DNA of 34,525 nucleotides from Elusimicrobiota bacterium (lineage in GTDB: Bacteria; Elusimicrobiota; UBA8919), in NCBI GenBank assembly GCA_003452965.1, contig DMMW01000010.1, positions 1 to 34,525 of the forward strand, in the 5' to 3' direction. Both the position numbers and the translations under genes were made by a program. How positions within the stretch are numbered: the stretch's first letter is position 1; every line of letters starts with the position of its first letter. Shown here one piece after another: positions 25,432-34,169 of this stretch. The notes under the pieces were generated by a model. It saw nothing but the letters and a program-made list of their open reading frames with translations, had not been told where the DNA came from and made no database searches.

Positions 25432-26847
25432 ATGCGTAAAACAAAAATTATCTGTACTATGGGTCCGGCTTCAGAAAAACCCGTAACGATTGAAAAAATG
25501 ATAAAATCGGGAATGGATATTGCGCGTCTGAATTTTTCACATGGCAACCATGAAGAACATAGAGAACGTATCAACATTATACAAAAAGTATCAAATAAAT
25601 TGAGTAAAAACATAGGGATTATGCAGGATTTACAGGGTCCAAAGATTCGTATTGGCAAATTTAAACCGGGAATACAAAATATAATCCTACAACCTGGTGA
25701 GAAATATATTTTAACTACCGAAAATTGCCCAGAGGGAGATAAAAATAAAGTAAATGTAGATTATAAAGAACTACACAGATATCTTACTAAAAACGATAGA
25801 ATTTTTCTTGATGACGGCAAAATAGAACTATTAGTAAAGAAGGTTATAAATAGAAATATTGAGTGTGAAGTAGTTGTCGGTGGCGAATTATCAGAACGCA
25901 AAGGACTCTCTTTACCGGATAAGCATCTACCACAACCTGTGATTACTCAACAAGATATAAATGATTTGTATTTTGGCATGAAAATCGGAGTAAATTATGT
26001 TGCAGTATCTTTCACAAGAAAAAAAGAAAATATACTGAAAATAAGAAAGCTGCTTAGAAACAATAATAAGATATCGCTAATTGCTAAAATTGAGGATGCT
26101 GAAGGATTAAGTAATATTAACAGTATAATTGATGTATCTGACGGTATAATGATTGCACGTGGTGACTTAGGTGTATGCTTACCAAGAGCAGAAGTACCTC
26201 TAATACAAAAAGAAATAATTAGAAAATGCCGTAAATCAGGTAAACCGGTAATAGTTGCAACACAGATGCTTGATTCAATGACAACAAATCTTCATCCTAC
26301 TCGTGCAGAAGTGAATGATGTTGCTAATGGTGTGTTAGATGGGGCAGATTGTTTAATGCTTTCTGGGGAAACTTCTATAGGCAAATATCCTATAGAAACA
26401 GTCAGGGAAATGGGCGAAATCATTAACACAATAGAAAAATCCGCTGATTATCTGAAAACCCTAACTTCAGAAAATTTTTATCCACAAGAACGCGGATTAA
26501 TTCAAGGATTAAGTATAGCAATTGATAAACTTTCACAAGTTGACAATGCAAAAGCAATTATCTGTTTAACCAAAACCGGTAATACAGCTAAAATAATTTC
26601 ACAATATCGCCCGCAATTACCGATAATTGCTGTTACGGTAGATAAAACGATTGCAATGAAATTACTTGTCTATTGGGGGATAAAAGTTTTAATCGGTAAA
26701 AAAGTAAAAGATGTAGAACGGAATTATAACACTTTTGTCAGGCAAGTAAAAAGAGAAGGACTGGTTAATGAAAGTGGTATAGTAATTATTACAAGTGGAA
26801 TAAAAGAAAAACCATTTCTAGCAAATATTTCTGTAGTTGAAGTATAA
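25432..26847 (+). CDS. pyk: Pyruvate kinase
   Basis: MRKTKIICTMGPA, ARLNFSHG, MIARGDLG, ATQMLDSM and MLSGETS. Confidence 0.9.
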   Translation: MRKTKIICTMGPASEKPVTIEKMIKSGMDIARLNFSHGNHEEHRERINIIQKVSNKLSKNIGIMQDLQGPKIRIGKFKPGIQNIILQPGEKYILTTENCPEGDKNKVNVDYKELHRYLTKNDRIFLDDGKIELLVKKVINRNIECEVVVGGELSERKGLSLPDKHLPQPVITQQDINDLYFGMKIGVNYVAVSFTRKKENILKIRKLLRNNNKISLIAKIEDAEGLSNINSIIDVSDGIMIARGDLGVCLPRAEVPLIQKEIIRKCRKSGKPVIVATQMLDSMTTNLHPTRAEVNDVANGVLDGADCLMLSGETSIGKYPIETVREMGEIINTIEKSADYLKTLTSENFYPQERGLIQGLSIAIDKLSQVDNAKAIICLTKTGNTAKIISQYRPQLPIIAVTVDKTIAMKLLVYWGIKVLIGKKVKDVERNYNTFVRQVKREGLVNESGIVIITSGIKEKPFLANISVVEV

Positions 26848-27238
26848 GGGGGCTGGGACTATGCTCTTGACTTTTTATTGTAGTATGTCCCCCAAGGTCC
26901 ATAGTAAACAACGAATGGTATTTTGGGGAATACAATACCTAAATAACGTCAAAAAAAATGAAAAATCAATGAAAACACAACTAATTGCTGAAGCAAACGT
27001 ATGGTGGAAATTTGGTAAAAACTTTTCTTACATATCAAAAGAATTACAAAGGAATTGACCCTACCCCATTAAATTTTACTAATACTAAATCCTATCTAAA
27101 AATTACTTGACAATTTATGAATATTATTATAAGACATATATGTAATATAAATGATAGTATACACGGTAAATGCGAGCAAATAATAGCATACTCATAAGTA
27201 TCCTACTCGTGAGTATTCTAACTAAAAGGGTGCGGTTT

Positions 27239-27574
27239 ATGGAGCATAAATTCATAAATAGAAAATCTGAAATTGATTCATTAGAAAAAAAGTGGGAAGA
27301 GAAAAAAAGCCACTTGATTATTGTTTACGGCAAAAGGCGTGTAGGTAAAACGGAAATCATAAAACAGTTTATTAAAAATAAACCCTCTGTATATTTCTTG
27401 GCTGACAAACGGACTATAAACGAACAACTCAAAGAATTAGGCAGGTTATTCGGCGCTCATTTCAAAGATGCCCTACTTGAAAAGAACGGATTTACCGACG
27501 ATATGCTGAAACTGGCGAAACAAGAACGTGTTTACTTAGTCAACAAGAACGAATTGATTGAGATGCAAGAGTAA
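27239..27574 (+). pseudogene. Internally deleted ATPase of the Arch_ATPase + DUF234 type (N-terminal ~95 aa joined to the last ~30 aa)
   Basis: FINRKSEIDSLEKKW..HLIIVYGKRRVGKTEIIKQFIKNKPSVYFLA (Walker A) runs directly into GFTDDMLKLAKQERVYLVNKNEL, the typical extreme C-terminus of such ~450-aa proteins. Confidence 0.6.
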
Positions 27575-27624
27575 TAAGACAGTATAGGTCGCGACAGAGC
27601 AACAGTTTATAAGTTAAAGATTGA

Positions 27625-27891
27625 TTCGTTGCATTAGTATTTAAAGAAATTGGACGAGCTGACGAGATGGGGTCGGGTGTCAGGAAACTCTATAAATATT
27701 GTAAAATCAACTCGGGATTAAATCCCCAGTTGATAGAAGAGGATATATTTAAAATTATTATTCCATTAGATGAGCAAGTTGGTGAGCAAGTCCTAAAGAT
27801 ACTTAAATACTGTAAAATCTCAAGAAAGAAGCAAGAAATATCCGATATGTTATATCCCGACGAAGGAACGGAAATCTTTCACTTTATATGA
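27625..27891 (+). pseudogene. C-terminal fragment of a COG2865-type (HATPase_c_4 + wHTH) protein, paralogous to the 27961 gene
   Basis: FKEIGRADEMGSGVRKLYKYCKINSGLNPQLIEEDIFKIIIPL compares with QQAGSGTLEMLKQCKAKGLPEPDF in the intact neighbour. The open frame starts only at 27625, just after a stop. Confidence 0.5.
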
Positions 27892-27923
27892 TAAAAGATG
27901 AAAAACCAAAAAGACCCCGTTCC

Positions 27924-27951
27924 TTGATTTTTCACTGTAAAAGAGTATAAT
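27924..27951 (+). promoter_or_regulatory. Putative promoter TTGATT-16-TATAAT ending 9 nt before the ATG (near-leaderless transcript)
   Basis: TTGATT at 27924-27929 and TATAAT at 27946-27951, with the ATG at 27961 and no SD between them. Confidence 0.4.
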
Positions 27952-27960
27952 CAAATCATT

Positions 27961-29436
27961 ATGAAAAAGTATAAAATATTCGTGAGTGGTGTGCAGAAAG
28001 AACTCAAAGCAGAACGCCGGGCAGTGAAAGATTCGATTCTCGGTGATGTCTTGCTCTCCGAGTATTTTGACGTTTTCTTGTTTGAAGATTCACCGGCTAA
28101 AAGCCATTCAGCAGAAAAGGCATATCTTGAAGAAGTCCGTAAAGGCAATATCTATATCAGCATTCTTGGCGATAAATACGGCAGCACGGGCAAGAATAAA
28201 ATTTCTCCTACCGAAGCAGAATTTCGGGAAGCAAAAACCAAGCATAAAGACATTTTAATTTATATAAAAGGTGAAAACTCCGTTGATAAAAACCGTGAAG
28301 CAGGCGTACAGAAACTTATTAAGGAGATTAAAGATTCCAAGGTGGGTTATTGTTATCGCAGATTTAATTCCATCAGCGAATTAACCAACCTTGTTTATGA
28401 AAGTTTGATTGTCTTTTTAAAAGAGAAAGGAGAAGTCGGCAGAGCCGTATTTGACCAGCGGATATGCGACAGTGCGACTTTCTCCGATATTGACGATGAA
28501 AAAGTTAAGTGGTTTTTAAAAACAGCACGAGCCAAACGGAATTTTCCACTTGCTCTTGATTCTTCAACACAAGATGTTTTTACTCATCTAAAACTTTTGA
28601 AAGACGGCAAATTGACCAACGCCGCAGTTTTATTATTCGGCAAAGAACCGAGAAAGTTTTTTGACCAGGCAAAAATCAAATGTATTCATCTGCCAAGTAC
28701 CGAAGTAGAGAAACCGTTCACATCATATCAAATTTACGAAGGGAATTTATTTGAGCAGGTGGACAAGGCAGTTAGTTTTGTATTTGATATACTCAAATTC
28801 CCTGTTATTCAGCAGGAACATACTGTCCAGGTATCTCGGCCCCGTGAAATTCCAGTATTCGTGGTTCAGGAAGCCATCGTCAACGCAGTTGCTCACCGCG
28901 ACTATAACACGACGTCCTCTGTTCAGGTAATGGTATTTCTTGACCGAGTGGAAATATGGAATTCTGGGACTTTACCAGCCCACTTAAAAATAGAAGACCT
29001 CAAAAAACCACACGCATCTCACCCGACAAATACTTTATTAGCCACAGTAATGTTTTTTGCCGATTACATTCAACAAGCAGGTTCGGGAACATTGGAGATG
29101 CTCAAACAGTGTAAGGCAAAGGGACTTCCCGAGCCGGACTTCGTATCAGTGCGGAATCTTGAATTCAAAACAATATTAGCCAGAGATATTTTTACGGAAG
29201 AGGTCTTAAATAAACTGGGATTGAATGAACGCCAGTTAAAAGCAGTAAAATATGTAAAAGAAAAAGGCAGAATAACGAATAAAGAATATCAGTTAAATTT
29301 TGGTGTTAAGAAAAGACAAGCAACAGATGATTTAAAAGATTTAGAAAATAAAGAGGTCTTAATTAAGATTGGATCTACTGGAAGGGGAACATATTACAAG
29401 GTTAATGGGGCGATAATGGGGCGAAAGGGGCAATAA
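27961..29436 (+). CDS. Fusion protein: N-terminal DUF4062-like domain + COG2865-type body (HATPase_c_4-like) + C-terminal wHTH
   Basis: The N-terminus KIFVSGVQKELKAERRAVKDSI...GNIYISILGDKYGS matches my recollection of the DUF4062 pattern. The middle and C-terminal parts (LTNAAVLLFGKEP, VQEAIVNAVAHRDY, VEIWNSGTLP, AGSGTLEMLKQCKAKGLPEPDF) are typical of RecG-like/COG2865 putative regulators. Confidence 0.75.
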   Translation: MKKYKIFVSGVQKELKAERRAVKDSILGDVLLSEYFDVFLFEDSPAKSHSAEKAYLEEVRKGNIYISILGDKYGSTGKNKISPTEAEFREAKTKHKDILIYIKGENSVDKNREAGVQKLIKEIKDSKVGYCYRRFNSISELTNLVYESLIVFLKEKGEVGRAVFDQRICDSATFSDIDDEKVKWFLKTARAKRNFPLALDSSTQDVFTHLKLLKDGKLTNAAVLLFGKEPRKFFDQAKIKCIHLPSTEVEKPFTSYQIYEGNLFEQVDKAVSFVFDILKFPVIQQEHTVQVSRPREIPVFVVQEAIVNAVAHRDYNTTSSVQVMVFLDRVEIWNSGTLPAHLKIEDLKKPHASHPTNTLLATVMFFADYIQQAGSGTLEMLKQCKAKGLPEPDFVSVRNLEFKTILARDIFTEEVLNKLGLNERQLKAVKYVKEKGRITNKEYQLNFGVKKRQATDDLKDLENKEVLIKIGSTGRGTYYKVNGAIMGRKGQ

Positions 29437-29452
29437 AGGGGCGATAATGGGG
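29407..29452 (+). repeat. Five phased GGGG runs (~11-nt period; GGGGCGATAAT-type units) overlapping the gene's stop; canonical G-quadruplex motif
   Basis: GGGG at 29407, 29418, 29427, 29438 and 29449, with loops of 5-7 nt. The unit ggggcgataat occurs exactly twice. Confidence 0.9.
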
Positions 29453-29697
29453 CAGAGCATTTAAAAAGACAGTATGTTTTTCCGATATAAAAACAGGAAA
29501 GCGCATTGGTCTCGATAAAGGCGGCCACTGGATTATCCTTCGTAGCAATAATAAAGTGGGAAAAGTTGTAGAGAAATAAAAAGAAAAATGTAAAGCGTCC
29601 ACATTTTCCTAATACACAATATGACACACAGATAAAGAACCTAAAATTAGGATTATCATTTCAAAACATAGGTCCCAAAATGACATTTATACAAGAG

Positions 29698-29875
29698 TGA
29701 CCCCACCCCCGAAAACTGTACCAGTTGAAATTAGAGTTTAGAAATGGTAAACTAAACTCATGGGGGTATGGTTATGAAACAGGGCAGGTACAAGGAAGAG
29801 CAGATTATCGGGATATTGAAGGAAGCAGAAGCCGGCATAAAGATAGATAAATTATGCCGTAAATAAGGATTAAAT
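29698..29875 (+). mobile_element. Truncated IS3-family remnant: left end (TGACCCCACCCCC...) plus the first 30 codons of orfA
   Basis: MKQGRYKEEQIIGILKEAEAGIKIDKLCRK* (29774-29866) matches the conserved IS3 OrfA HTH N-terminus (..EEQIIGILKEAEAG....LCRK). A TGA-initiated terminal sequence lies about 75 nt upstream. No remainder of the transposase is present. Confidence 0.6.
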
Positions 29876-29881
29876 GAGATT

Positions 29882-32800
29882 ATGAGCAATCAATTTATAA
29901 CTAATCAGGAAAAACTACTGTCGGAAGTAATAAATAATATTCTCCCATCCACACAAAAGTTAAATATCTTGGTTGGATATTTTTATTTTTCCGGATTCCA
30001 GGAAATTTATAAAAATATAGCAGATAAAGAAGTTAAAATCCTCATTGGTTTAGATATTGAAAAAGATATTTTAAACAAAGTCAAAGAATTTGAACTAATT
30101 CAATCTATAAATCTTTCCCGAAGTCAAGTAAGAGATAATTTCAATAAATCGTTTATCCAATTATTTAACGATTCAGATTATTTTGATATTGAAGAAAAAC
30201 AAGAGGCATTCCGAATATTTCTTGAAAAAATTATAAACAAAACACTTGAAATTAGAAAAACCGTCCAACAAAACCATGCAAAATTATATGTTTTTGAAAA
30301 CAAGCCGGAACATAATCAGAACGGTGAATTCTTAGGAACAATAATTACCGGTTCAAGCAACTTAACCCGTTCAGGATTAAAAGGACAGCGTGAAATAAAT
30401 GTTATATTTCGTGACAATGGCAATTACGAGGAAGCACTCAAAATATTCAACGAACTTTGGAAGGATGAAAACTCGGTAGAAATAGTCGGTAAAACTACAA
30501 CGGACAGTTTTCTTATCGAAATAATAGAAAAAATCTGGATTGATAAACTTTACGATCCATATTTATTATATATTCGTGTCTTGGAAGAATATTTTTCATT
30601 TACTAAGAAAGAAGGTATCATTCTTCCTTCCGAAATTACAAAAAATAAATTCATGAATCTTAAATATCAGAATGACGCTATTTCGCAATCAATAGAAATT
30701 CTTAACCGGCACAACGGCGTTATCATTGCGGATGTTGTTGGATTGGGAAAAAGTATTATTGCTTCTGCAGTAGCCCATAACATGGGATTACGAACAATAA
30801 TTATCTCACCACCGCATCTAATAGGGCAATGGGATGATTATCATATTGATTTTGGATTTAACGCTAAAATATTCAGCAGCGGTAAAATACAGGAAGCATT
30901 AGAATATGATTTTGCATATAATGAGCCAAAATTAATTATTATAGATGAATCGCATAAATATCGCAACGAACTAAACATTGACTACGGATATTTACATCAA
31001 CTATGCCAGGGAAACAAAGTAATTTTATTAACCGCTACGCCATTTAACAACCAACCGCAGGACATATTTTCAATGATAAGATTATTTCAAATACCTGCTA
31101 GGTCCACAATACAAACAGTAGATAATTTATCATACAGATTTAAAGAACTTATCAAGGAATATAAAGAAATAAAAAAATCACAAATACAAAAAAAGTCGGA
31201 TATGAAAGATGAAATTAAAATATTGGCACAAAAAATCCGTGATATACTTGCTCCATTGGTTATTCGTCGGTCAAGATTGGACTTGGAAAAAATTAATGAA
31301 TACCGAGAAGACCTTAAAAAACAAGGGATATCATTTCCTGAAGTTAAAGATCCTACAATTTTAGACTATCCGCTTGGAAAACTTAGTATACTTTACGAAA
31401 AAACTCTTGAAAAAATTGTATCCACGGAAGACGAATCACAGGGCTTCATGGGAACAAGATATAAACCGACAAATTATCTTAAAGAAGAACACAAAAAACA
31501 AGTTGCTGATGAATTAGGTGTAAAAGAAGATTTACTTGTACAGGTACAAATAAACCTGTCAAAATTTATGCGTCGCCTATTAGTCAGGCGTTTTGAAAGC
31601 TCGGTAAAAGCATTTCACGATTCCTTGAACTCACTAATAAAATCATCCGAATACATGCGTGATTGGTATAATAAATTTGAGAGTGTTCCAATATACAAAA
31701 AAGGTGATTTGCCGGACATAGAAATCCTTGAACAATCCACCAGTGAAGATTTAGATGAAGAACTCCAGCAGATTACATTTGACGAGCAACTAAAAAAATA
31801 TTATGACAAAGGACTTAAAATAATAAAAAAAGAATGGCTAAAAGACACTTTCATTAAAGACATTGAAAAAGACATAAAACTACTAAAAGAAATACGTGCA
31901 GAATGGTTTAAAGACGGCATCAAACACGACCCGAAATTAGAATGTTTTGAAAAAGAAATAAAGCAACAACTAAAAAAAGAACCCAACAGAAAAATAGTTG
32001 TATTTACCGAATTTTCAGATACAGCAAACTATCTATACGAAAAACTCAAAAACAAATTGAAAATATTTAAATATACCTCCGCGGACTCAAGTGAAACCAA
32101 CAAAAAAATAATCAAAGAAAACTTTGATGCCGGTAATCCTATACAAAAAGACGACTACGACATTCTTATTGCTACCGATGCAATTTCAGAAGGCTTTAAC
32201 CTTCACAAAGCAGGTATTATATTCAACTATGACATCCCATACAACCCGACAAGAGTAATACAACGGGTAGGACGTATAAACCGCATAAACAAAAAAGTAT
32301 TTAATGAACTTTACATCTATAATTTCTTTCCAACGGCTACCGGTGAAGCAGAAACACGGATAAAAAAGATATCTACATTAAAAATTTCATTATTTAATGC
32401 TTTACTTGGTACCGACATAAAAGTATTAACCTCGGATGAAGAATTGGAATCCTATTACAAAAATGAATTTATAAAATCAATGGCAAATCAAGAAGAACTA
32501 TCATGGGATGTAAAATATCGCAATGAACTTGGAATATTGAAAAATAAACATCCAGATATATTACAAAAGGCAATGGCAGTTCCCCATCGTGCCCGCATTA
32601 GAAGAACAGAAAAGAAAGATACAGCTGGAGTCATTGTATTTGCGCGAAAAGGGAAAGAATACACGTTCAAACTTGGCATTTCAAAGGAAGATTATACAAC
32701 ATTAGGTCCTGAAACTGCACTAAAACTATTTGAATCAGAAATAACCGAAAAATCGGAAAAAATAAGTAAAAACTTTGAACCGATATACCAGCATGTAAAA

Positions 32801-33121
32801 AACAACCTATTCAACAAAAAAACCCAGGTATCTTTTGATAAAGGAAAAACCGAATCAATAAACAAATTAGAAGTATTACAAGAAAAGATTCCAGATAAAA
32901 AGGACTATTTCAACGATTTAAAATATATAATAAAAGAACTGGATGCATTACCTGAAAGATATGCTAAACAAATCCGTCAAATATCAGAAAAATCCCTTAA
33001 AAAAGATGTTGAAGAACTGCAAAAAGATGTATCGCAGAAATACTTAATAGAAATCATAGAAAAAGCACGAAGAATAGAAGATGAAGCAGAAAGCTTAATA
33101 CTCACAGAAGAACTGATATAA
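29882..33121 (+). CDS. PLD-family (single HKD) nuclease domain fused to an SNF2/SF2 helicase
   Basis: LNILVGYFYFSG and HAKLYVFEN...GSSNLTRSGL (HxK...GSxN). Helicase motifs are DVVGLGKS (I), IIIDESHKYRN (II), LLTATPFNN (III), TDAISEGFNL and QRVGRINR (VI). The ~250-aa C-terminal tail is uncharacterised. Confidence 0.85.
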   Translation: MSNQFITNQEKLLSEVINNILPSTQKLNILVGYFYFSGFQEIYKNIADKEVKILIGLDIEKDILNKVKEFELIQSINLSRSQVRDNFNKSFIQLFNDSDYFDIEEKQEAFRIFLEKIINKTLEIRKTVQQNHAKLYVFENKPEHNQNGEFLGTIITGSSNLTRSGLKGQREINVIFRDNGNYEEALKIFNELWKDENSVEIVGKTTTDSFLIEIIEKIWIDKLYDPYLLYIRVLEEYFSFTKKEGIILPSEITKNKFMNLKYQNDAISQSIEILNRHNGVIIADVVGLGKSIIASAVAHNMGLRTIIISPPHLIGQWDDYHIDFGFNAKIFSSGKIQEALEYDFAYNEPKLIIIDESHKYRNELNIDYGYLHQLCQGNKVILLTATPFNNQPQDIFSMIRLFQIPARSTIQTVDNLSYRFKELIKEYKEIKKSQIQKKSDMKDEIKILAQKIRDILAPLVIRRSRLDLEKINEYREDLKKQGISFPEVKDPTILDYPLGKLSILYEKTLEKIVSTEDESQGFMGTRYKPTNYLKEEHKKQVADELGVKEDLLVQVQINLSKFMRRLLVRRFESSVKAFHDSLNSLIKSSEYMRDWYNKFESVPIYKKGDLPDIEILEQSTSEDLDEELQQITFDEQLKKYYDKGLKIIKKEWLKDTFIKDIEKDIKLLKEIRAEWFKDGIKHDPKLECFEKEIKQQLKKEPNRKIVVFTEFSDTANYLYEKLKNKLKIFKYTSADSSETNKKIIKENFDAGNPIQKDDYDILIATDAISEGFNLHKAGIIFNYDIPYNPTRVIQRVGRINRINKKVFNELYIYNFFPTATGEAETRIKKISTLKISLFNALLGTDIKVLTSDEELESYYKNEFIKSMANQEELSWDVKYRNELGILKNKHPDILQKAMAVPHRARIRRTEKKDTAGVIVFARKGKEYTFKLGISKEDYTTLGPETALKLFESEITEKSEKISKNFEPIYQHVKNNLFNKKTQVSFDKGKTESINKLEVLQEKIPDKKDYFNDLKYIIKELDALPERYAKQIRQISEKSLKKDVEELQKDVSQKYLIEIIEKARRIEDEAESLILTEELI

Positions 33122-33134
33122 TGAAGTATAATTT

Positions 33135-34169
33135 ATGAGTGAAAATCGTATCGTTTTAGACAAAACTTATTTGAATTTCTTAAACGAAATCAAACACAAA
33201 ATTGCTTCTGCAAGAATACAAGCAAGTCGGCATTTAAATAAGGAATTGATAGAACTTTACTGGGATATCGGAAAAACAATTATTGAGAAACAAAAGCAAT
33301 ATGGATGGGGACAAAGTATCGTTGAAAAATTAGCCAATGATTTGCAAAATGGATTTCCTAATTTGCGGGGATACTCAAGTCGTAATCTATGGGATATGAG
33401 AAGATTTTATGATACATATAAAGATTCATCAATTCTGCGACAGCTTGTCGCAGAAATACCATGGGGACACAACCTAATGATTATAAACAAAATATCCAAC
33501 ATGAAAGAACGAGAATATTATATTAAATCATCGCGTGATATGGGTTGGTCCAGGAACGTACTTCTGAATCAAATTAAAGCCGGAGCATATCAATTAAGTT
33601 TAAGAAAAAAACAACACAACTTTGAAAAAGCTTTACCTGTACATCTTTCAGAACAAGCGGATGAATCACTTAAAAGTGTTTATAGCCTGGATTTTCTCGG
33701 AATAACAAGACCAGTATTAGAAAGAGAGCTTGAAAAACGGCTTATTGAAAAAATTAAACATTTTCTGCTTGAACTTGGTTCGGGGTTTTCATTCATCGGC
33801 AATCAGTATCGGCTTGAATTAGACGGCACTGAATATTTTGTTGATTTGTTATTTTTTAACCGTAAAATTAAATGTCTCGTTGCCGTTGAACTTAAAACAG
33901 GTAAATTTCAGCCCGAATATGCCGGAAAAATGGATTTTTATCTACATCTACTAAACGAACAGACCCGCCTGAAAGATGAAAACCCGCCGATAGGAATTAT
34001 TCTTTGTGCCGATAAAAGTAATATAACCGTTGAATACGCTTTAAGAAGCGTTAAAAATCCTATGGGTGTATCACAATACAATTTAACAACAAAACTTCCC
34101 GCTGAACTTAAAAAAGTTTTACCGTCGGAAAAGGAAATGAAGAATCAACTTTTAGAAGAAATTAAGTGA
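33135..34169 (+). CDS. YhcG-family PD-(D/E)XK nuclease (DUF1016)
   Basis: The N-terminal domain LIELYWDIGKTIIEKQKQYGWGQSIVEKLANDL...RGYSSRNLWDMRRFY is classic DUF1016. The C-terminal nuclease core is YFVDLLFFNRKIKCLVAVELKTGKF. The start lies 13 nt after the helicase stop. Confidence 0.85.
   Translation: MSENRIVLDKTYLNFLNEIKHKIASARIQASRHLNKELIELYWDIGKTIIEKQKQYGWGQSIVEKLANDLQNGFPNLRGYSSRNLWDMRRFYDTYKDSSILRQLVAEIPWGHNLMIINKISNMKEREYYIKSSRDMGWSRNVLLNQIKAGAYQLSLRKKQHNFEKALPVHLSEQADESLKSVYSLDFLGITRPVLERELEKRLIEKIKHFLLELGSGFSFIGNQYRLELDGTEYFVDLLFFNRKIKCLVAVELKTGKFQPEYAGKMDFYLHLLNEQTRLKDENPPIGIILCADKSNITVEYALRSVKNPMGVSQYNLTTKLPAELKKVLPSEKEMKNQLLEEIK

Follow-up and report, generated by a model that had tools for sequence, protein, structure and literature searches.

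We analysed a 34,525-nucleotide contig of an Elusimicrobiota bacterium (GCA_003452965.1, DMMW01000010.1; hereafter the window), which carries a gene for a protein of 491 residues. An earlier note, made from the sequence alone, had read this protein as a DUF4062-like domain grafted onto a COG2865 scaffold. Here we show that it is built of three modules, namely a NIR (DUF4062) NADase fold with a catalytic glutamate, a GHKL ATPase-like module with intact motifs, and a winged helix-turn-helix (wHTH) domain. We further show that the recognition helix and wing of the wHTH, together with five phased direct repeats at the 3′ end of the gene, form a co-varying cassette that is exchanged as a unit. Neither the repeat array nor the mosaic wHTH was part of the earlier reading, and we believe that their covariation is new.

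Results

Layout of the gene and its product

The features of the locus are given in Table 1. The open reading frame (ORF) was read from the sequence, and its product is a 100% match to the [quoted passage not shown]; an MK(K)YKIF start is common to most homologues. The motifs by which the scaffold had been recognised (LLFGKEP, AIVNAVAHRDY, AGSGTLEMLKQCKAKGLPEPDF and KIFVSGVQKELKAERRAVKDSI) are all present in the translation, and Pfam finds PF13271 (DUF4062) and PF13749 (HATPase_c_4) and no AlbA_2, in line with the proposed DUF4062–HATPase_c_4–wHTH order. The fusion as such is already annotated in databases, the NCBI name being "DUF4062 domain-containing protein". NCBIfam gave no match for the protein, and in PADLOC-DB v2 it matched no full-length defence-system model. 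Partial PADLOC matches were to the pAgo and Aga_SIR2-PNTD models (residues 161–409) and to the SoFic C-terminus (E = 0.004). Residues 163–409 correspond to positions 176–437 of the pAgo model, which we infer to describe the SLFN/GHKL-bearing type of pAgo.

Table 1. Features of the locus, in window coordinates
Feature	Position	Strand	Details
Truncated ATPase_2 (PF01637)/PDC-S27-like remnant	27170–27574	+	N-terminal 134 residues; Pfam, PADLOC
Remnant of the C-terminal end of another PF13749-type gene	27625–27891	+	stop-to-stop frame
Promoter-like block	27924–27951	+	−35 TTGATT 27924–27929, 16-nt spacer, −10 TATAAT 27946–27951, 9 nt, ATG 27961
Coding sequence, NIR/DUF4062–GHKL (PF13749)–wHTH	27961–29436	+	491 residues
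NIR/DUF4062 TIR-like domain	27961–28431	+	residues 1–157, five parallel strands
Putative catalytic glutamate E87	28219–28221	+	motif S82-P-T84-E85-A-E87-F88
Linker and GHKL/Bergerat-type ATPase-like module	28438–29190	+	residues ~160–410; PF13749 at residues 319–402
GHKL motif residues	28870–28872 (E304)	+	N-box E304, N308; H312-R313-x-Y315; N334-x-G336; G374-x-G376 (sequence motifs)
C-terminal wHTH	29191–29403	+	residues 411–481; H1 423–435, H2 440–447, recognition helix 451–463, wing 467–481
Swappable specificity cassette	29293–29454	+	codons 445–491 (H2 end, recognition helix, wing, tail) and repeat array
Five phased direct repeats	29403–29454	+	last 10 codons, stop codon (29434–29436) and 18 nt further
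Start of IS3-type orfA (HTH_Tnp_1)	29774–29866	+	first 30 codons; breakpoint between two population variants of the island
PLD-SNF2 helicase	29882–33121	+	PADLOC C3a139 "HKD+Snf2"; variable island cargo, not partner
DUF1016/YhcG PDDEXK protein	33135–34169	+	PDC-S02; variable island cargo, not partner

An N-terminal NADase fold with an invariant glutamate

Residues 5–91 cover the full PF13271 model (positions 1–82) with E = 5.8e-18 and 65.3 bits against a cut-off of 24.7. The N-terminal fold is a five-stranded parallel β/α (flavodoxin-like) domain that lies nearest to the folds of TIR and of nucleoside 2-deoxyribosyltransferase (NDT). The earlier note had recognised a TIR-like module here, and in the fold comparison both TIR and deoxyribosyltransferase folds stand among the top matches: SARM1 TIR (13.6), MAL TIR (13.3), a 2′-deoxyribosyltransferase (13.0), the CMP hydrolase MilB (12.9) and TIR-SAVED (12.8). 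Foldseek was less discriminating and returned many Ras-like matches. Residues 2–179 align with the solved DUF4062 chain of KpSwz (10wc_A, E = 0.0011), where E87 faces the alanine at chain position 84 of a construct that runs from residue 15 to the C-terminus and carries E97A (84 + 13 = 97). E87 is invariant in 56 close homologues and in 7 distant ones.

Three preprints (10.64898/2026.05.01.722283, 10.64898/2026.09.04.749371, 10.64898/2026.06.25.731849) describe a conserved catalytic glutamate in other DUF4062 proteins (KpSwz E97, Eva01 E87-Y88, Vulcan E98, PsAvs2 E108). According to the same preprints, the domain, renamed NIR, converts NAD+ to ADP-ribose (ADPR) and nicotinamide in the abortive anti-phage defence of Swarozyc, Avs2-NIR, Vulcan, Vesta and Evangelion, and every DUF4062 domain assayed to date, those of KpSwz, PsAvs2, Vulcan, VstA, Eva01 and human TEP1, hydrolyses NAD(P)+. 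By analogy with these homologues, the 491-residue protein is predicted to be an NADase. The domain might instead be a nucleotide or nucleoside N-glycosidase of the NDT, MilB, BcmB or Rcl type that acts on (d)NMPs or modified nucleotides, types that in part recur among the structural matches above. Against this stand its placement in PF13271 by sequence, its alignment with KpSwz and the NAD(P)+ hydrolysis by the domains just named, and we regard an N-glycosidase as quite improbable.

Different effectors on one GHKL-wHTH chassis

PF13749 matches residues 319–402 with E = 1.2e-17, well above the cut-off. Neither NIR- nor AlbA_2-type proteins vary at the GHKL motif residues E304, N308, H312, R313, Y315, N334, G336, G374 and G376, and the family profile matches PDB 3lmm_A over the GHKL region (E = 1.4e-9) and also KpSwz. 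PF04326 (SLFN_AlbA_2) gave no match in the protein, even at E up to 10 on its parts. Five relatives (P0126, P0174, P0187, P0200, P0209) carry SLFN_AlbA_2 at residues ~10–125 followed by HATPase_c_4 (and HTH) according to Pfam, and they are colinear with our protein from about residue 160 to the C-terminal end. Because of this colinear alignment, the exchange of AlbA_2 for DUF4062 is real, and the earlier proposal that DUF4062 takes the place of the SLFN_AlbA_2 domain of canonical COG2865 proteins is borne out.

The fusion is not rare. A HMMER search over 1.84 billion cluster representatives yielded 559 at E ≤ 1e-30, the best 149 of which (50% identity clusters) were classified with local hidden Markov models. 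At least 92 of these best 149 carry NIR and GHKL (92 by the classification); the others are 27 with AlbA_2 and GHKL, 29 with GHKL only (mostly fragments) and 1 with NIR only.

The SLFN-GHKL combination was named "Schlatpase" by Kuzmenko et al. (10.64898/2026.05.29.728809), according to whom the PF13749 domain of SLFN-pAgo binds and hydrolyses ATP (E314A is inactive) and drives a tetramerisation that activates the N-terminal nuclease. Judging from the homologues characterised in the preprints, the predicted GHKL module would likewise mediate ATP-gated assembly. In two relatives, P0169 and P0227 (about 870–884 residues), a single chain holds two complete NIR-GHKL modules, an arrangement that fits a dimerising unit. 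P0143 has a weak TIR_2-like+GHKL module followed by NIR+GHKL, and P0121, of 2918 residues, has two AlbA_2-GHKL modules; all four of these chains may be covalent dimers or gene-call fusions. P0129 and P0134 have longer C-terminal tails with Fic-like_C. Of additional interest are two plasmid loci. On Legionella pLPP (L031:39-1539), the fusion is annotated as two ORFs, a DUF4062 protein (173 residues) and an ATP-binding protein (323 residues), and on a Hymenobacter plasmid (L119:1-1566) a separate DUF4062 gene lies directly 5′ of a complete AlbA_2-GHKL gene. Both loci may represent a split or two-gene form of the system.

A mosaic wHTH and a phased repeat array exchanged as a unit

The wHTH assignment comes from the AlphaFold2 (AF2) secondary structure, with a predicted local distance difference test score (pLDDT) of about 88, from a match of the family profile to the wHTH of the Fic protein 8cil_A (E = 3.6e-7), and from HTH_DeoR and MarR matches in close homologues. 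In the close family, the last ~47 residues are more variable than the remainder, with a mean pairwise identity of 0.45 versus 0.70–0.78 elsewhere. Compared with our protein, P0002 is 92% identical over residues 1–444 and 21% over residues 445–491, whereas P0033 is 74% identical over the first part and 73% over the second. The DNA gives the same picture: with L001 and L002 the homology reaches 29292 and 29290, and with loci of the same allele (L003, L022, L024) it continues to 29454–29456, a limit that coincides with the end of the repeat array. By per-column entropy, the variable wHTH columns are 450–456, in the N-terminal half of the predicted recognition helix, and 472–478, at the wing tip. 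The conserved core consists of the hydrophobic and turn residues D457, L458, L461, G471 and Y479.

In the window, Tandem Repeats Finder reports 4.8 copies of a period of 11 at 29403–29454. The core WGGGGCR starts at 29406, 29417, 29426, 29437 and 29448, a spacing of 11-9-11-11 over 42 bp, and the array holds 5 of the 9 WGGGGCR sites of the window. We surveyed 107 loci for such arrays, 17 from GTDB genomes, 80 from a metagenome scan and the others found by exact-protein look-up. By a strict measure, which asks for one 8-mer to recur at least 5 times, with up to one mismatch, in the 180 nt that surround the stop codon, 75 loci have an array (70%), compared with 7 of 535 control windows (1.3%). 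Successive copies nearly always stand 11 nt (179 times) or 9 nt (81 times) apart, and the commonest pattern is again 11-9-11-11, that is, 42 bp or four helical turns. Arrays lie between −59 and +5 relative to the stop codon; among 52 strictly phased ones, 34 span it, 15 lie wholly after it and 3 are inside the coding sequence.

The core sequence differs between loci and tracks the allele of the recognition helix (Table 2); TTGCACGAT, TTGGCGATT and GGCTCATAA are examples of arrays of other alleles. In a pairwise comparison of 72 non-redundant loci, the core is shared by 94% of pairs with a helix identity of at least 0.9 and by 5% of pairs below 0.3. Pairs with different helices (identity <0.5) and a similar adjacent body share the core in 10 of 215 cases, and pairs with similar helices (≥0.8) and a dissimilar body do so in 31 of 44. 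None of 2000 permutations reached the observed correlation. The same pairing holds for inverted arrays (TGGCTCA / GAGCCA), with GAGCCA in L080–L083, L110 and L047, and for AlbA_2-type proteins of 28–45% identity on unrelated replicons. Close AlbA_2-type relatives also have 3′ arrays that fit their helix allele. On Hymenobacter plasmids, the AlbA_2-type helix SKPTATRYL goes with GGCTCA, and on a Rhodothermus plasmid SKRTASGEL goes with a five-site 11-9-11-11 array of TTGGGCAA. A deltaproteobacterial protein with SKRTASNEL has the reverse complement of this Rhodothermus TTGGGCAA core; in both lineages, SKRTAS[GN]EL helices pair with TTGGGCA.

Table 2. Recognition-helix alleles and the cores of their 3′ arrays
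Helix	Core
K[KS]RQ[AS]T[DN]DL	GGGGC[GA]
SKATATR[DE]L and SKPTATRDL	GGCTCA
TKRTASRDL	GGGGAC or GGGGCC
[ED]RTLNRDL	CGGACATTT
R[KR]TLYRDL	GGGACATTT
SPR[MQT]AHLD[LF]	TTGCACGAT
SDEGA[RL][RK]DL	TTGGCGATT
SNKTAY.DL	AGTAATGA
PNRTALRDL	AAC[AG]CGCCA

From this covariation we infer that the wHTH binds the array as double-stranded DNA, probably as an oligomer whose units stand side by side along one face of the double helix. The repeats might instead have no binding function, having arisen by slippage as the code for a low-complexity tail (K-G-x-K-G), or being scars of recombination carried along with the variable wHTH. The array is indeed partly translated in the window and at many loci (...NGAIMGRKGQ; GAPKGRKGH), and with array and helix so tightly linked, covariation would be expected from co-transfer alone. 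Such an origin does not sit well with the 15 of 52 strict arrays that lie wholly after the stop codon, with array positions that vary from −59 to +5 relative to it, with a five-site 11-9-11-11 architecture that is kept while the core differs completely between alleles, or with inverted arrays beside the same helix allele. It is also at odds with a pairing that persists at 28–45% identity on unrelated replicons and with the low frequency of such arrays in control windows. We therefore consider functionless repeats unlikely and retain binding of the array by the wHTH as the preferred reading.

An RNA-level role of the array was considered and rejected: the array matched no Rfam family and had a fold z-score of 0.39, and the inverted arrays with the same helix allele argue for double-stranded DNA. 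The window array (29406–29454, + strand) contains five GGGG tracts 5–7 nt apart, a canonical G-quadruplex motif, which is probably incidental given that no such G-richness is seen in the arrays of other alleles. When viral contigs were scanned for three cores in phase, TTGCACGA turned up in 7 stretches and TGGCGATT in 14, mostly generic period-9/10 repeats with no related wHTH nearby. In two IMG/VR contigs (L123:100-260 and L131:10060-10100), TCGTGCAA, which is TTGCACGA read on the other strand, and TTGGCGATT recur in 11-nt phase. These arrays look like those of two family alleles. The flanking DNA examined contains no related wHTH gene, and the arrays could be chance matches, decoys or targets.

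A stand-alone gene in changing surroundings

The family comprises more than 120 clusters at 90% identity, with 66–87% identity over the full length, in Elusimicrobia, Omnitrophota and Poribacteria. More distant full-length members occur in WOR-3, Planctomycetia, Stahlbacteria, Bacteroidales and on conjugative Legionella plasmids. We rejected the idea of a phage-borne gene: IMG/VR viral contigs contained no homologue, and INPHARED phages gave C-terminal (GHKL) matches only.

The surroundings vary from locus to locus. The identical protein occurs in two downstream settings, namely PLD-SNF2, DUF1016 and an MmeI-type enzyme (window, L018), or an insertion sequence (IS) and a HinP1I-type restriction-modification (R-M) system (L019). 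Elsewhere, type III-like R-M surrounds the gene (L022, L007), HsdR precedes it (L010), integrases, serine recombinases or SIR2 adjoin it (L025, L027), as do Rep proteins (Rep3_N in L001, Phage_rep_O in L002), or housekeeping genes surround it (L024, L005, L006). AbiEii, KAP NTPase and plasmid Rep/Par genes are also found around relatives. Of the 99 immediate neighbours counted in metagenome loci, not more than 6% belong to any one family; Resolvase (6), PLDc_2 (5) and Metallophos (4) come first. Since there is no fixed neighbour, the gene is a stand-alone unit in variable islands and mobile elements, which fits the stand-alone sensor-effector that the earlier note had offered as one of two possibilities.

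The other possibility, a regulator of the neighbouring PLD-SNF2 module, is not supported: in L019 the identical protein is followed by the IS and the HinP1I-type R-M system instead, and PLD-SNF2 recurs in one other locus, 4 kb away. PLD-SNF2 and DUF1016 were likewise rejected as partners, because, across 29 loci, tblastn located them in the population of the window alone, or else at a distance from the gene in L027, L003 and L022. More generally, the protein could be a transcription factor that controls neighbours such as PLD-SNF2, with DUF4062 and GHKL as ligand sensors. JGI and NCBI annotations ("predicted HTH transcriptional regulator") agree with this, as do the C-terminal wHTH with its apparently sequence-specific predicted sites and the co-directionality of all island genes in the window. 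The two downstream settings of one identical protein (L019 vs L018), the absence of PLD-SNF2 from nearly all other loci and the lack of any frequent neighbour family oppose it. So do the invariance of the catalytic glutamate of an NADase fold and the placement of the sites: the gene's own core motif gathers only at its own 3′ end in the window and shows no upstream enrichment across 85 loci. Taken together, we think a transcription factor very unlikely.

The main rival to a defence function is a maintenance or addiction module of mobile elements, in which the array would be centromere- or iteron-like, and the protein would kill element-losing cells via NAD+ depletion or act in partition or copy control. 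R1 ParR/parC (with 11-bp repeats), TubR, itself a wHTH protein, with tubC, and iteron-binding Rep proteins polymerise on short phased direct repeats by their own gene. They share with our system a small DNA-binding fold, ~10–12-bp direct repeats phased at about one helical turn beside the own gene, and discrete specificity groups. Here, unlike there, one chain joins the DNA-binding domain to an enzyme effector and an ATPase, with no motor partner and no evident replication or partition function; we note the likeness without claiming a sequence relationship. The rival is kept alive by frequent Par/Rep genes and recombinases nearby. ParB adjoins the gene on Legionella plasmids, ParB and ParA on Chlorohelix plasmids and ParA on a Rhodothermus plasmid, besides the Rep proteins of L001 and L002, and serine recombinases and integrases are the commonest immediate neighbours. 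The sharing of promoter, ORF and array with relatives as one block, the discrete orthogonal helix/array alleles, which resemble incompatibility groups, and the lack of IMG/VR homologues also speak for it. However, many chromosomal copies are embedded in type I/III R-M operons or surrounded by housekeeping genes and have no replicon functions close by, no ParA/ParM/TubZ-type motor partner is found, and the DUF4062 proteins characterised so far act against phages. A maintenance role would in any case not exclude defence, as addiction and defence often coincide. On balance, we find maintenance rather doubtful and keep to a conflict protein as the preferred reading.

Two further neighbour arrangements were observed. 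A RadC-like JAB protein (UPF0758_N and RadC) lies directly 5′, overlapping or within 17 nt, in L013:1988-2911, L014:9073-9981, L016:9073-9981 and L028:9309-10001; these four independent loci, which include the distant subfamily of 33–36% identity, all have type I R-M genes ahead of it. In L025:9786-9995 and L026:7903-8112, a 69-residue HTH_3 (Xre-type) gene stops 5 nt short of the NIR-GHKL gene, after which comes a large serine recombinase; HTH_3 proteins make up 3 of the 99 immediate neighbours in metagenome loci.

Promoter, upstream remnants and downstream cargo

The earlier note had assigned the gene a near-leaderless TTGATT-16-TATAAT promoter without a Shine-Dalgarno (SD) sequence. This is the best promoter-like site in 26800–30000 (10 of 12 matches), in a region where the number of such sites is at chance level (9 found versus 9.4 expected). 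The window shares DNA homology with its nearest relatives, L001 and L002, from 27920 and 27923 onwards, immediately 5′ of the −35 element. The DNA further upstream is unrelated, which makes the block the 5′ edge of the DNA shared with these relatives. Because it is conserved together with the gene in L001 and L002, we predict that the promoter is real in the sublineage of the window, where the gap of 9–11 nt to the ATG is too short for an SD. The arrangement does not extend to the whole family: an SD-like motif is present in 42 of 79 distinct upstream regions of relatives, and several copies are translationally coupled to an upstream gene. In the window sublineage, promoter, ORF and array form one 1.5-kb unit (27920–29454) that is shared with relatives as a block and occurs in defence islands, integrative elements and plasmids.

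Two remnants (Table 1) sit between a pyruvate kinase gene and the NIR-GHKL gene. The second had been described as a decayed paralogous fragment, of which the frame itself and the turnover of the locus stand, and a recent or close paralogy does not. It matches the C-terminal half of PF13749 below threshold (E = 0.0047, 17.3 bits, cut-off 26) and is 31% identical to residues 372–433 of our protein, and we rejected a recent paralogue on these grounds. The two remnants suggest an earlier turnover of island cargo at this site, not a recent duplication.

Downstream, the identity between L019 and the window reaches to 29868, which is 14 nt short of the start codon of PLD-SNF2. In L019 (L019:11477-12955), which is a second assembly from the population of the window, an intact IS (HTH_Tnp_1 and rve) and the HinP1I-type R-M system replace the PLD-SNF2/DUF1016/MmeI block. 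An MmeI-type IIG enzyme follows PLD-SNF2 and DUF1016 beyond the window (L018:16606-19974). The PLD-SNF2 and MmeI-type pair recurs in L027:15643-21452 with 35% identity, which suggests that the two form a unit of their own.

Discussion

Based on our findings, we propose that the protein is a self-contained, single-polypeptide NAD+-depleting conflict protein of the abortive-infection type, composed of a NIR effector, a GHKL switch and a wHTH that binds its own 3′ array; we consider this reading probable, with reservations that we set out below. In this scheme, the N-terminal TIR-like NADase with its catalytic E87 would deplete NAD+, and the PF13749 GHKL module, by analogy with the supradomain of Schlatpase, would act as an ATP-dependent oligomerisation switch that gathers the effector domains. 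The wHTH, with its fast-swapping recognition helix and wing, would bind the five phased repeats at the 3′ end of its own gene. Our preferred guess is that the array tethers the oligomer and keeps it switched off or poised. If the locus were lost or destroyed, or the protein displaced from the DNA, it would be set free to deplete NAD+, and such control by tethering would serve both defence and addiction.

Taken one step further, wHTH and array could form a protein-DNA lock, a tentative idea that we hold possible and no firmer. The NADase would sit on its own 3′ array, inactive or poised, as an ATP-dependent oligomer and would fire when the DNA is lost, degraded or out-competed, so that the array would be the cis-encoded "antitoxin", or tether, of a toxin made by a single gene. 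Deletion of the cassette, phage nucleases or invading DNA with matching repeats would be examples of triggers, and the helix/array alleles would constitute orthogonal groups of specificity, with exchange of the cassette as their source of diversity. The same logic may extend to the much larger AlbA_2-type COG2865 family. We know of no such control logic in defence or addiction modules.

Several points weigh against the proposal. In the KpSwz alignment, no conserved residues of this lineage stand opposite the Q/W/E motif of Evangelion and Swarozyc cores. The AF2 full-length model is poor in the GHKL part (pLDDT 30–50), so that the geometry of the ATP site is drawn from sequence motifs alone. 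About 30% of the 107 loci have no clear array by the strict measure, and arrays are absent from relatives with other C-terminal types (Legionella, Arcobacter, Parabacteroides, Chlorohelix). Helix and array lie no more than ~150 bp apart and are exchanged together, and their covariation could come in part from physical linkage. Linkage does not explain the five-site architecture with different cores, the inverted cases or the persistence across very distant relatives. Across 85 loci, the 150 nt upstream of the gene show no excess of the cores (0.07 vs 0.14 hits per locus), and neither does the gene body. With sites at the 3′ end only, autoregulation of the promoter is unlikely, and we rejected classical autoregulation; as it provides no explanation, the role that we give the array is a guess. 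Finally, the association with defence islands is an observation on sampled loci.

Among known systems, Swarozyc (KpSwz) is a single-gene DUF4062/TIR-like NADase defence (Osinski et al., 10.64898/2026.05.01.722283; PDB 10wc, 11cq, 11cv). Our protein resembles it in having an N-terminal DUF4062 followed by a helical stalk, alignable over residues 2–179 with the position of the catalytic glutamate kept, and in being a single polypeptide with a C-terminal HTH/winged-fold sensing domain. KpSwz assembles on the phage portal ring, a multivalent scaffold bound by its ~120-residue HTH/winged AUX, and is activated by this templated assembly; no DNA array is reported in the searchable text of that preprint. 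KpSwz has 326 residues and no GHKL, whereas our protein has an additional PF13749 module of ~250 residues; the similarity is confined to DUF4062 and the stalk, which places our protein outside Swarozyc. Avs2-NIR, Vulcan (NIR and HEAT), Vesta (NIR and alkaline phosphatase) and Evangelion (DUF4062 and a short AUX) have the same N-terminal effector with the invariant glutamate, the same modular design of an effector and a variable sensor, and a similar enrichment near defence genes and on mobile elements. They differ in their sensors, which are STAND/TPR, HEAT repeats, a small ligand domain or a short AUX. In the searchable text of the three NIR/DUF4062 preprints, figures aside, HATPase_c_4, GHKL, RecG and Schlafen are not mentioned.

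The closest likeness in the C-terminal part is to Schlatpase/COG2865 proteins, including the SLFN-pAgo RzAgo and DIP2311 (PDB 3LMM). Residues ~160–491 of our protein are colinear with them, with 36–50% identity to the closest and invariant GHKL motifs, the wHTH is of the same type, and residence in R-M operons is frequent. A C-terminal HTH is present in >90% of Schlatpase members according to the searchable text of the preprint (10.64898/2026.05.29.728809), which does not mention repeat arrays beside these genes. Our protein has the defining PF13749 and C-terminal HTH, but in place of the SLFN_AlbA_2 (PF04326) nuclease that also defines Schlatpase it carries DUF4062; because of this replacement, its predicted output is NAD+ depletion, not tRNA cleavage. 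In the text of the literature searched, figures aside, we found neither HATPase_c_4/PF13749 together with DUF4062 nor repeat arrays beside these genes. We therefore class the locus as a NIR effector on a Schlatpase chassis, with the wHTH/array covariation as an added feature.

NIR/DUF4062 NADases and the SLFN-GHKL Schlatpase chassis have each been described only in 2026 preprints (10.64898/2026.05.01.722283, 10.64898/2026.09.04.749371, 10.64898/2026.06.25.731849, 10.64898/2026.05.29.728809). Here the two are combined in a large, horizontally mobile family that reaches from Elusimicrobiota, Omnitrophota and WOR-3 to Planctomycetota, Bacteroidota and Legionella plasmids. This combination makes PF13749 GHKL-wHTH a general effector-carrying chassis, whose effectors are the AlbA_2 nuclease, the NIR NADase and possibly TIR. 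For the 60,000-member COG2865 family, whose trigger is not established in the text of its preprint (10.64898/2026.05.29.728809), the co-varying wHTH helix and 3′ array offer a concrete handle on what the C-terminal domain recognises, and the more than 15 natural helix-to-DNA-core pairs may yield a recognition code or orthogonal parts. If binding of the array does control the NADase, an immune or addiction effector would here be tied in a new way to whether its own locus is intact.

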